From NCBI GenBank assembly GCA_963717145.1, contig OY970325.1:3680001-3744000 (forward strand): 64,000 nucleotides of DNA. The letters run 5' to 3'. A program made the position numbers and the translations under genes. The notes under the pieces are model-generated. The model made no database searches and had not been told where the DNA came from. It was given only the letters and a program-made list of their open reading frames with translations. Positions 33,540 to 35,555 of this stretch are shown here, piece after piece (the first letter of the stretch is position 1; the number at the start of each line of letters is the position of its first letter). The stretch comes from an uncultured Armatimonadetes bacterium. GTDB lineage: Bacteria; Armatimonadota; UBA5829; DTJY01.

Positions 33540-33557
33540 TCTGATCCGGCGTTCAGT

Positions 33558-33588
33558 CCCGCCGCCCTCTTCGGAGAGGGCGGCGGGG
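33558..33588. terminator. GC-rich hairpin between convergent rplY and rex-like gene
   Basis: cccgccgccctc-ttcgga-gagggcggcggg. Confidence 0.65.
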
Positions 33589-33591
33589 CAA

Positions 33592-34536
33592 CTAACCTTC
33601 CCTGCTTCTCCCACCGCAGTAGTATGAGAGCGCCGACAACTCGGCAACCACATCCACATTTCGCACGATGATCCCGGAAGGCGCCACGAGTATCGCCGAC
33701 GTCAGGTTGAGGATCGCCTTCACTCCCGCCATCACCAGCGTATCTGCGACGACCTGAGCCTCCTCCGCCGGAACGTCGACCACCGCGCCCTGTGCCCCAA
33801 GTGACCTGACCTTCTCCGAAAGCGCACTGATCGGATACACCTTCATCCCGGCAACGATCTGACCGGCGGAGGCCTCATCAGTGCTGAAGACTGCGGTGAC
33901 GAAGCAGTTCTGCTGTGCGAACCGCTCGATCAGCGAGGGGTCCTCCGCCAGCCTCTGCGGGCCGACCCAGACGATCGTCTTGGAGTTGTCCAGGTGGAGA
34001 ATCTGCTCCAGGTGGTCTCGAAGGAATACCGTATCATAGCCGATCGAGGGCCTTCCGAACGCGCCGAAATGGCTGAGATCACGCCTGATCAGGCCGGGCT
34101 TCACTCCCACCTTGCGCCCTATGTCCTGAGATGACACTCGGTTGATCTCCTGATCGAGGAAACCGTTCAGCGCCACAAGGTACCACCGCAGACGGGTGAC
34201 CGTCCGGTCGGATACCTTCCTCTCACCGGGCGCGGACGGCTCGACAGTTTGTCTGGACCCGTAGAAGTCCGCGAGCTTCCTGCTGAAGTTCCGCGGCTTT
34301 TCGAACTGCTCGCGGACGGGGCATGCCATTTCGAGATTGTGTGGGAAAGGACAGACGGTTGACGTACATGAAGTGCAGGATGCGAAGCCTTTGGTCTGAG
34401 TACACATGAAGATAGCACACGGCTCCCGGCCGTCAGACTTGACGATGAGGTTTCCCGCCTCGCATCCGGGACAGCGTCCCTTGACAAGATGGTTACAAGT
34501 ATTGCAATCGAAGATCCCACAATGAGCAAATTCCAC
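33592..34536 (-). CDS. rex: Rex-family repressor with N-terminal Cys-rich DUF3795-like domain and degenerate NAD(H)-binding fold
   Basis: wHTH RL..YL..L...SS..I......IRRDLSHFG.FG...GY; C-terminal VPAEEAQ.VAD.LV.AGVKAILN...NVD; 11 Cys in the first 70 aa. Confidence 0.88.
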   Translation of the reverse strand: MEFAHCGIFDCNTCNHLVKGRCPGCEAGNLIVKSDGREPCAIFMCTQTKGFASCTSCTSTVCPFPHNLEMACPVREQFEKPRNFSRKLADFYGSRQTVEPSAPGERKVSDRTVTRLRWYLVALNGFLDQEINRVSSQDIGRKVGVKPGLIRRDLSHFGAFGRPSIGYDTVFLRDHLEQILHLDNSKTIVWVGPQRLAEDPSLIERFAQQNCFVTAVFSTDEASAGQIVAGMKVYPISALSEKVRSLGAQGAVVDVPAEEAQVVADTLVMAGVKAILNLTSAILVAPSGIIVRNVDVVAELSALSYYCGGRSREG

Positions 34537-34564
34537 GGCGCTATCCCCTCTTTCTCATGCCTCT

Positions 34565-34582
34565 TTGTGAAATATTGCACAA
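34565..34582. promoter_or_regulatory. Rex operator 1
   Basis: TTGTGAAATATTGCACAA, close to the TTGTGAA-n4-TTCACAA consensus. Confidence 0.85.
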
Positions 34583-34596
34583 TTAGGCTTCCGCGT

Positions 34597-34614
34597 TTGT
34601 GCAATATTGCACAA
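34597..34614. promoter_or_regulatory. Rex operator 2
   Basis: Perfect palindrome TTGTGCAATATTGCACAA just downstream of the -10 element. Confidence 0.85.
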
Positions 34615-34624
34615 ACTCACCACC

Positions 34625-34653
34625 ATTATATGCCGTCGCCGGAAAAGTGTCAA
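34625..34653 (-). promoter_or_regulatory. Consensus sigma70 promoter of the rex-like gene
   Basis: TTGACA-17 bp-TATAAT exact match. Confidence 0.9.
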
Positions 34654-34730
34654 GCGGTTTTGTGCGAAAAGTAACCACTTGTGAAAAAAACAAGTACCTG
34701 GTAATAATACCAGTTTTTGCCCCGGAGGTA

Positions 34731-34759
34731 TTGACGGTTGACGAATTCGGTTGTAGACT
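34731..34759 (+). promoter_or_regulatory. Sigma70 promoter for the PEP-CTERM gene
   Basis: TTGACG-17 bp-TAGACT. Confidence 0.6.
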
Positions 34760-34900
34760 AGTAGCGTGCAACCCGAACCGACCCAATGCTGCTCCATGCG
34801 TGGGCAGGTCGCTGGGCGGAATCGGGTGGTAGAAGAGGGTCACCTCGATGTGATCCCACGGTACTTGTTGTTCCGCCGCATAGGCGGAAAGGAGAAAAAG

Positions 34901-35555
34901 ATGAGAATACGAGCAACAATTGTTGCAACAGTCATCCTGCTGCTGGCGCTGTCGCTTAGTGCACATGCCGTCATCAACGTGGGTGACTCGTGGTCCTACT
35001 GCCTGAGAGCGCCCGGCCAGTCCGGTGTCACAGCTGCGGTTATGAACCCCGAGTTCACATTCGTTCGGCGCCGTCGGCAACAGCTCTGCTGCATTGGCTA
35101 CAAGCCTGGGAGTGCCGGCGCTCGAGTACGGCCTCTACATCAGCAGCAACGTTCCCGTTGTTGGCGTGAGAACAGGCACGTGGACGGTGGGCCTGCCGGC
35201 CGCCGGCACGTATCAGGTATTCGTGGCCTGGGGTGCGACCACCAGCGGCAAGACGAATGCCAAGCATGTGGTCACCTACGACGGAGGGACGTCTACTTCG
35301 CTCCTCGACCAGCTTGCTGCCGCGAACAAGAACGTCTGGAACTCGCTCGGCACGTTCCACTTCCTGACTGGCGCCGGCAATGAAGCCAAGGTAAAGCTCA
35401 CGAACGACAATCAGAGCACCAGTGGCTCCCTGTACCTGGGCGCAGTCAAGTTCCAGGTCGTGACGCTCGATCCCGTTCCTGAGCCGAGCAGCCTGCTCGC
35501 ACTCGGAACCGGCCTCGTTGGAATGCTCGGCCTGATCAGAAGGCGCAGAGCCTAA
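34901..35555 (+). CDS. PEP-CTERM surface protein with golvesin/CBM-like domain; one frameshift near 35063
   Basis: RBS and signal peptide in one frame; AGTYQVFVAW, DQ....VWNSLGTF.F, VPEPSSLLALGTGL...RRRR in the next; removing 1 base restores TFVGAVGNS. Confidence 0.85.

Follow-up and report, generated by a model that had tools for sequence, protein, structure and literature searches.

Rex is the textbook NADH/NAD+ sensor of Gram-positive and thermophilic bacteria, and its scaffold has been used for NADH biosensors. In canonical Rex, NADH changes the relative position of the winged helices. Other regulators, among them FNR, the Wbl/WhiB proteins and NsrR/IscR/RsrR, carry a Cys-ligated iron–sulfur (Fe-S) cofactor in or on a DNA-binding dimer, respond to O2, NO or redox state and act on respiratory genes. 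Here we describe a Rex homologue with a Cys-rich N-terminal domain, termed Cys-Rex, from an uncultured Armatimonadetes bacterium; the Armatimonadota have few cultured members. The gene lies in a 64,000-nucleotide (nt) stretch of contig OY970325.1 (assembly GCA_963717145.1), hereafter called the window, and coordinates are window positions unless a contig is named. We propose, at roughly even confidence, that Cys-Rex may be a Rex-box repressor in which a Cys-ligated metal centre has taken over sensing from the NAD(H) pocket.

Domain organization of Cys-Rex

Cys-Rex consists of a Rex core preceded by an additional N-terminal region (Table 1). In Pfam searches, residues 107-155 matched PF06971 with E 9.5e-14 and 51.7 bits (cut-off 27), and residues 188-280 matched PF02629 with E 1.5e-10. 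The protein also passes the NCBIfam Rex subfamily model NF003995 (175.4 bits, cut-off 126) and the equivalog NF003994 (139.1 against 130 bits), while the other seven NCBIfam Rex (PRK05472) equivalog models remain below their cut-offs, as does NF003992 with 151.5 against 226. Rex proteins are its nearest solved relatives (5zz5, Thermotoga maritima Rex, E 3.6e-25). The full-length AlphaFold2 (AF2) model has a mean predicted local distance difference test score (pLDDT) of 85.5, with N-domain blocks mostly at 80-90, and a predicted template-modelling score (pTM) of 0.55. It places helices at residues 81-95 and 296-313, and pLDDT falls below 50 at residues 98-104. In a Foldseek search with this model the top 39 ranks were all Rex chains (E 1.6e-18, TM 0.86-0.89 on target).

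Cys-Rex has much in common with the canonical Rex proteins of T. aquaticus/T. thermophilus, T. maritima, B. subtilis and S. coelicolor: the same fold, the same DNA-contact residues and the same C-terminal helix, in which Asp295 corresponds to Asp191 of T. maritima Rex and is Asp in 60 of 69 family members. It differs from them in an added N-terminal region of 100 residues with 11 Cys and in the remodelling of the dinucleotide pocket.

The Cys-rich N-terminal domain

All 11 Cys of the domain, together with Asn29, are invariant in the 28 N-domains from genome loci. Among 46 aligned full-length proteins, eight of the Cys are invariant and three are conserved at >=90%, a level also reached by R75 and R82. 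There are three CxxC pairs and no conserved His, and a Pro directly follows the last Cys.

The closest described family is DUF3795 (PF12675), which comprises small, free-standing Cys-rich proteins found mostly in anaerobes. Its model matches whole Cys-Rex weakly at residues 12-63 (17.1 bits against a cut-off of 22.6) and scores 22.2 bits when the 92-residue domain is scanned alone; all 28 family N-domains match at E<=0.1, with a best value of 3.4e-6. The neighbours of the N-domain in a protein atlas are DUF3795 clusters (scores 0.90-0.91), and DUF3795 atlas clusters come mainly from anaerobe-rich phyla. P0100, a free-standing protein of 94 residues that passes the Pfam cut-off with 28.6 bits, has the spacing CxxC-x7-CxxC-x14/15-C-x4-C-x8-CxxC-x4-C in common with the Cys-Rex N-domains, that is, the nine Cys from C11 to C62. 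Unlike DUF3795 proteins, the Cys-Rex domain is fused to a transcription factor, adds the invariant C6 and C72 and scores at or just under the Pfam cut-off.

A phmmer search with the 85-residue domain against 1.84 billion cluster representatives retrieved 28 proteins, most of them 310-335 residues long and the rest mainly cut pieces. Nine were inspected, including the two longer ones and five of the shorter fusion-type ones; eight were fusion forms or fragments, and the ninth was P0100. No candidate was retrieved by a word-indexed search for short free-standing relatives of residues 1-92, and a PDB sequence-profile search with the N-domain alignment gave nothing below E 1.2. We found no functional study or description of DUF3795/PF12675 in the literature searched and no structure in the PDB.

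DNA-contact residues and the remodelled NAD(H) pocket

For a census of functional columns, 69 Cys-Rex sequences were aligned jointly with 34 canonical comparators (16 Armatimonadota, 10 Halanaerobiaceae or Bacillota loci and 8 database hits), one cut locus being excluded. Roles in DNA contact and in NAD(H) contact or space were assigned from passages of a study of T. maritima Rex (PMC8836258), whose numbering is used for these columns.

The residues that read DNA are kept. Arg12, Arg48, Gly58 and Tyr64 (R115, R151, G161 and Y167 in the window protein) are present in 69/69 Cys-Rex, Ser33 (S136) in 68/69 and Ser52 (S155) in 65/69. Lys49 (R152) is more variable, with Arg in 36, Lys in 25 and His in 8 of the 69. 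Within the recognition helix, the window Cys-Rex has G148, L149 and R152 where the canonical Rex of the same genome has A, Q and K.

The pocket, by contrast, has changed across the clade. GxGxxG is cut to GAxRLx: the second and third Gly (G91 and G94) are each Gly in at most three of the 69 Cys-Rex and in 33 of the 34 canonical proteins, and Asn92, which is Asn in 19/34 canonical sequences, is Arg in 45/69. At Ala96 (Ala in 33/34 canonical), 55/69 have Asp, Asn, Glu or His. The nicotinamide-stacking Tyr100 gives way to an aliphatic residue or Arg (I/L/V/M/A/R) in 63/69; the canonical set has Tyr in 19, Phe in 2 and Asn in 9 of 34. Pro154 is Pro in 29/69 against 34/34, and the Phe of NFAP, found in 32/34 canonical proteins, is Leu or Met in 69/69. 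The first Gly and the hydrophobic strand residues of the pocket are kept. The replacing residues are conserved too (R195 in 45/69, L196 in 60/69, L278 in 64/69), suggesting that a changed pocket function fits better than decay or drift.

Much of this had been claimed in an earlier note on the same DNA, and all the features that it names in the sequence are there. It had described an intact winged helix-turn-helix, and PF06971 is matched above cut-off with the DNA-contact residues present. The alignment with 5zz5 sets GAGNIG against GPQRLA, Tyr100 against I203 and NFAP against NLTS, as the note had read the three motifs, and its fused DUF3795-like domain with 11 Cys is found between residues 6 and 72. 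The reading of the ribose-binding FD as FS is true of the window protein, where S218 stands at Asp115, and atypical of the family. The further statement that the NAD(H) site is lost holds for six canonical pocket positions replaced across the clade and goes too far for Asp115, which most members keep (see below).

Promoter and operators

The Rex operator consensus is TTGTGAA-N4-TTCACAA, as given in the abstract of PMC2883068. Two putative operators of this type lie between a sigma-70-type promoter and the start codon of the Cys-Rex gene (Table 1); the presence of two Rex boxes between an exact TTGACA-17-TATAAT promoter and the start had been proposed before for this DNA and was confirmed by a scan. 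Perfect TTGACA/TATAAT promoters with 17-nt spacing number 21 in the 5.37-Mb genome, against 0.09 expected from base composition. Exact TTGTG-N8-CACAA occurs six times in the whole genome against 2.6 expected, and two of the six are the boxes at the Cys-Rex promoter. Judged by their positions in the sequence, the palindromes are placed where a bound protein would block transcription. Rfam gave no family at E<=1 on window 34300-35100, so no known riboswitch or leader RNA was found there.

Boxes with <=1 mismatch stand within 330 nt upstream of the first Cys codon in 5/27 orthologous loci (L026, L027, L028, L040 and L050); at the genome-wide frequency, 66 per 5.37 Mb, one would expect about 0.1. 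In the closest orthologue (L026, 68% identity), TTGACA-17-TATAAT is followed after 10 nt by the near-identical box TTGTGCAATAATGCACAA. The boxes of L027, L028 and L040 adjoin or follow promoter-like hexamers, as judged by eye.

Cys-Rex has the operator type of canonical Rex at its own promoter, with half-sites that are mostly TTGTGCA rather than TTGTGAA. In a hand count, which covers few related loci and in which hybrids occur, the base after GTG is C or G in 10/12 Cys-rex half-sites and A in 14/18 canonical rex half-sites. We considered whether residue 152, the equivalent of Lys49, tracks this operator base; no residue-to-base rule emerged, and the idea is kept as a lead only. Upstream of the -35 hexamer, window 34660-34692 holds two more CACAA half-sites in direct orientation (TTCACAAGTGG...TTTTCGCACAAAA) and a box with two mismatches (TGGTTACTTTTCGCACAA).

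Distribution and origin of the fusion

A homologue search over 5.8 billion proteins retrieved 75 relatives of Cys-Rex, about 50 of which are 300-340 residues long and span the Cys region. We also surveyed a sample of 401 genomes assigned to Armatimonadota from their record titles, using nine closer alignment rows as the query for related loci. The Cys domain was detected in 32 of these genomes, belonging to 24 of the 207 genera. In 26 of the 30 distinct loci, a single tblastn segment runs from the Cys domain through the whole Rex core, the other four being split or cut, and GxGxxG is present in 0/31 Cys-Rex loci.

In a maximum-likelihood tree of the Rex core only (103 rows, 202 columns, LG+G4, quick search, without bootstrap), the 69 non-redundant Cys-Rex all fall on one side of a branch with a Shimodaira–Hasegawa-like approximate likelihood ratio test (SH-aLRT) value of 99. 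Since all fusion proteins share this single branch, the fusion and the pocket changes trace to one event. By sequence comparison, Cys-Rex is one clade, so far found only in Armatimonadota, and has the Cys domain throughout; across the homologues, the DUF3795-Rex architecture and the degenerate motif in the NAD-binding columns are conserved clade-wide.

The literature searched, by titles and abstracts, contained no description of a Rex with a Cys-rich or other N-terminal extension or of a paralogue with a degenerate GXGXXG, and the DUF3795-Rex architecture recognized here from sequence is new to it. Members of the family carry the plain database name 'Rex'. The public record of the window protein (P0003, 245 residues, from the window's genome) begins at an internal ATG at 34329 (MACPVRE) and omits the whole Cys domain; the records of P0056 and P0057 likewise begin at the MxCPVR motif, and that of P0063 slightly downstream of it. 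Because such records begin after the Cys domain, the architecture is easily overlooked. The L026 orthologue apparently starts with CTG at the position homologous to the GTG of the window gene (34536).

A third kind of Rex paralogue was seen in L070 (G303:C1:5368900-5370900); it has no Cys domain, and the degenerate loop VGANGVAE replaces GxGxxG. Many genomes of family f3 have three PF06971 matches.

Proposed mode of action

We picture Cys-Rex as a dimeric Rex-box repressor whose input domain would be of the DUF3795 type with 11 invariant Cys. This domain is predicted to bind metal, most likely as one or two Fe-S clusters and otherwise as Zn. Fe-S is preferred, on weak grounds, because there are 11 invariant Cys and no conserved His, a Pro follows the last Cys, and DUF3795 occurs mostly in anaerobe-rich phyla. 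The state of the metal site (oxidation, nitrosylation, loss or occupancy) would shift the relative position of the two winged helices, and this shift would release or tighten binding at TTGTG(C/A)A-N4-T(G/T)CACAA sites. Cys-Rex would repress its own gene and probably also act on a subset of the Rex-box genes of the genome, the intergenic region between ResB and a multihaem cytochrome being a candidate. In other lineages the same protein may be wired to two-component systems. Its likeness to FNR, Wbl/WhiB and NsrR/IscR/RsrR would lie in the working mode, with a putative cofactor; the Cys pattern differs from theirs, and no relation in sequence or fold to them was found.

Several observations weigh against this proposal. 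Asp115, the adenine-ribose ligand, is kept in 63/69 Cys-Rex, the Ser of the window protein being one of three exceptions, so that an adenine nucleotide or some other ligand may still find a place in the pocket. The Cys spacing corresponds to no textbook ferredoxin, radical-SAM or Wbl motif, and three CxxC pairs would fit zinc equally well. AF2 predicts a mostly helical N-domain, and for the isolated domain its confidence is low (pLDDT 60.3). For this isolated model, VIA-align detected no counterpart at Z>=2 among 48,161 chains, and Foldseek none in the PDB below E 5.7; because the model is weak, these blanks say little. Most of the distant orthologues have no Rex box at <=1 mismatch upstream (22/27 loci without one); in nine of these 22 the gene follows a histidine-kinase gene within an operon. 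Canonical Rex shares the DNA-contact residues of Cys-Rex, has a hybrid box at its own promoter and could itself be the binder of the boxes. Neutral on docking is a complex prediction of the N-domain (1-95) with a Rex-core dimer (105-314), made without controls (score 0.00, mark 0.32).

Part of this evidence would suit a protein with a non-canonical pocket that continues to respond to a pyridine or adenine nucleotide. Its Cys domain would then be a structural zinc module, which might, for instance, hold two dimers together for cooperative binding to both operators. Such a protein would keep Asp115, the first Gly and the hydrophobic strand residues, as most Cys-Rex do, and zinc would be in keeping with three CxxC pairs, the lack of a conserved His and a mostly helical predicted domain. 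The two operators, 32 nt or about three helical turns apart, would suit bridged dimers. We nevertheless regard nucleotide sensing as unlikely, given that six positions of NAD(H) contact or space are replaced across the clade, that at least 66/69 proteins have a side chain at the second Gly, that the stacking Tyr is lost and that the window protein is without the Asp too. The same evidence bears on the proposal in the earlier note of a Rex-scaffold regulator switched by an Fe-S or metal cluster instead of NADH: the fusion, the 11 Cys, the clade-wide degenerate loop, the intact DNA-reading residues and the boxes found again at promoters of the closest orthologues speak for it, while the retained Asp leaves room for a nucleotide.

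Gene neighbourhoods and two-component systems

In 9/28 loci, all of one subclade, the first Cys codon lies 20-53 nt after the end of a histidine-kinase gene. The order in G144 is an OmpR-type regulator gene, a gene for a soluble PAS-HisKA-HATPase kinase, Cys-Rex (with a 4-nt overlap) and a RodZ-like gene. In G133 and G228, Cys-Rex is followed by a single-domain receiver gene and a nucleotidyltransferase gene, and a metagenomic protein of 476 residues (P0083) is a triple fusion of DUF3795, Rex and a response-regulator receiver. A different setting is found in G187, where hemA (glutamyl-tRNA reductase) has a 4-nt overlap with the Cys-Rex stop and the gene for a multihaem cytochrome of 1032 residues comes next; the rex gene of Streptomyces coelicolor is also co-transcribed with hem genes.

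The kinase genes of the subclade, the gene order in G144, the receiver genes and the triple fusion could mean that Cys-Rex takes its input from two-component partners, by phosphotransfer or contact, with the Cys domain as a docking or stabilizing module instead of a sensor. We think this improbable: the window gene is monocistronic, and no such partner was found nearby. The Cys domain is, moreover, invariant in clades with and without such neighbours, and neighbourhood alone shows no contact. On the proposal that the Cys domain itself is the sensor, these arrangements would be couplings added in particular lineages.

Coexistence with canonical Rex

PF06971 matches the window's genome twice. 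The second gene encodes a canonical Rex of 208 residues with GAGNLG, FD and NFAP, so the second, canonical rex whose presence the earlier note had left to be checked is there. Its box, TCGTGAATAACTGCACAA, lies 28 nt 5' of the start and has one GAA-type and one GCA-type half. In the sampled phylum, PF06971 is present in 279/401 genomes. By cross-tabulation, 28/32 genomes with the Cys domain hold at least one PF06971 match beyond their Cys-Rex copies, and a Rex with GAGNLG is encoded in 15/16 loci taken from carrier genomes. Palindromes of the GTGAA...TTCAC type stand after the -10 hexamer in 9/16 loci of canonical rex genes, some of them recognized by eye.

The four genomes without a further PF06971 match are G169 (80% complete), G220 (74%), G398 (74%) and G007 (98%). 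The Cys match of G398 is weak and contains a stop. In G007, with 98% completeness and 1% contamination, both PF06971 matches are Cys-Rex genes without GxGxxG. Considering that most carriers have a canonical Rex and that none was found in G007, Cys-Rex is normally an extra paralogue, a second copy beside canonical Rex, yet can exist alone.

That Cys-Rex acts mainly as a partner of canonical Rex, forming mixed dimers through the swapped C-terminal helix and bringing a second signal to the Rex regulon, would agree with the further PF06971 match in 28/32 Cys-domain genomes, the conserved C-terminal helix and Asp191 equivalent, the like operators at both rex genes and the hybrid GAA/GCA box of canonical rex, but we judge it very unlikely, as G007 lacks any PF06971 match besides its two Cys-Rex genes, the DNA-reading residues and the symmetry of the palindromes argue for a homodimer that binds DNA alone, and the paralogues differ at three recognition-helix positions. 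The heterodimer partner suggested in the earlier note is weakened accordingly by G007, in which PF06971 found no canonical Rex, and keeps in its favour that canonical rex coexists in most carriers.

Rex-box genes elsewhere in the genome

In the window's genome, good boxes were found between a [FeFe]-hydrogenase-like gene and a fur/feoB pair, before a phosphoglycerate-dehydrogenase-like gene, nuoH and a multihaem cytochrome gene, and at the start of a molybdopterin oxidoreductase gene. Tandem boxes lie at 5041148 and 5041170 between resB and multihaem cytochrome genes, and this resB/cytochrome pair has the only other tandem 'GCA-type' boxes standing by redox genes. As far as sequence goes, the box-bearing genes are a typical Rex-type regulon, whose candidate sites either paralogue may bind.

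The region G000:C1 ~5,038,000-5,057,700 (L007, L076 and L008) groups resB and a molybdopterin oxidoreductase gene with no fewer than five genes for multihaem cytochromes c. This cluster also bears Rex-type boxes, again five or more, at 5041148, 5041170, 5047117, 5054786 and 5054897, and by its sequence it looks like a set of Rex-controlled electron-transfer genes.

Exact TGTGCA-N4-TGCACA occurs three times in the genome: at the Cys-Rex promoter, in the ResB/multihaem-cytochrome intergenic region and before an ACT-domain gene. We considered 'GCA-type' boxes as markers of cytochrome genes and rejected this use, because the third exact site, before the ACT-domain gene, means that the cytochrome link is not exclusive. 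In L075 3489-4505 (G000:C1 ~5,235,700-5,236,700), two tandem ACT-domain-pair genes are followed by an amino-acid ATP-binding cassette (ABC) transporter, and TTGTGCAAAAGTGCACAT stands before the second of the pair. In one frame the first ACT-pair copy covers only half of the ACT_8 model, and it may contain a frameshift.

Features and flanks of the Cys-Rex gene

The neighbours of the Cys-Rex gene are a convergent L25/Ctc gene and a divergent PEP-CTERM gene. Between the stops of Cys-Rex and the L25/Ctc gene, at window ~33557-33588, lies a GC-rich hairpin (CCCGCCGCCCTCT / AGAGGGCGGCGGG), which is probably a terminator common to both genes; a terminator scan made no call there because no T-run follows the hairpin.

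Table 1. Coordinates of the Cys-Rex gene, its domains and its control region, and of the canonical rex box of the same genome
Feature	Position	Strand	Details
Cys-Rex coding sequence	33592..34536	-	314 residues, GTG start; open reading frame list
C-terminal helix, residues 294-313	33598..33657	-	Equivalent of the Rex alpha9 helix; alignment, AF2
Rossmann-like domain with remodelled dinucleotide pocket, residues 186-293	33658..33981	-	PF02629, 5zz5 alignment, column census, Foldseek
Loop GPQRLA, residues 192-197	33946-33963	-	Faces GAGNIG of T. maritima Rex
Rex winged helix-turn-helix, residues 107-168	34033..34218	-	IRRDLSHFGAFGRPSIGY; PF06971
Basic helix (FEKxR...RKL) and flexible linker, residues 81-106	34219..34296	-	AF2 and conservation
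N-terminal DUF3795-like domain, residues 1-80	34297..34536	-	Cys 6, 11, 14, 22, 25, 40, 45, 54, 57, 62, 72
Ribosome-binding site GAGGGGA	34544..34550	-	8 nt 5' of GTG; seen in the sequence
Putative operator 2	34565..34582	.	TTGTGAAATATTGCACAA; exact TTGTG-N8-CACAA, 5' leader, 32 nt from operator 1
Putative operator 1	34595..34616	.	Perfect 22-nt palindrome GTTTGTGCAAT/ATTGCACAAAC; starts 10 nt after -10
Core of operator 1	34597-34614	.	TTGTGCAATATTGCACAA; exact TTGTG-N8-CACAA
Sigma-70-type promoter TTGACA-17-TATAAT	34625..34653	-	-35 at 34648-34653, -10 at 34625-34630; 12/12 matches
Canonical rex hybrid box	G000:C1:3921402-3921419 (L001 about 1438-1455)		TCGTGAATAACTGCACAA; window's genome

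Implications

Taken further, Cys-Rex may represent a new sensor class on the Rex scaffold that detects redox state or a gas through an Fe-S or metal-thiolate centre, a possibility that we put forward tentatively and as somewhat less probable than its opposite. A free DUF3795 cofactor domain would have been fused to Rex once, in an ancestor of this clade, and the NAD(H) pocket made into a receiver for it. The result would be a second, NADH-independent redox input that reaches Rex-box promoters, among them those of genes for multihaem cytochromes and haem synthesis, and that in several lineages would be coupled to two-component phosphorelays. If true, Cys-Rex would be a natural case in which the sensor input was exchanged and the DNA-binding and dimer output retained. 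It would also open a first way into the function of DUF3795 and would hint at a layer of redox control in Armatimonadota that has gone unstudied.

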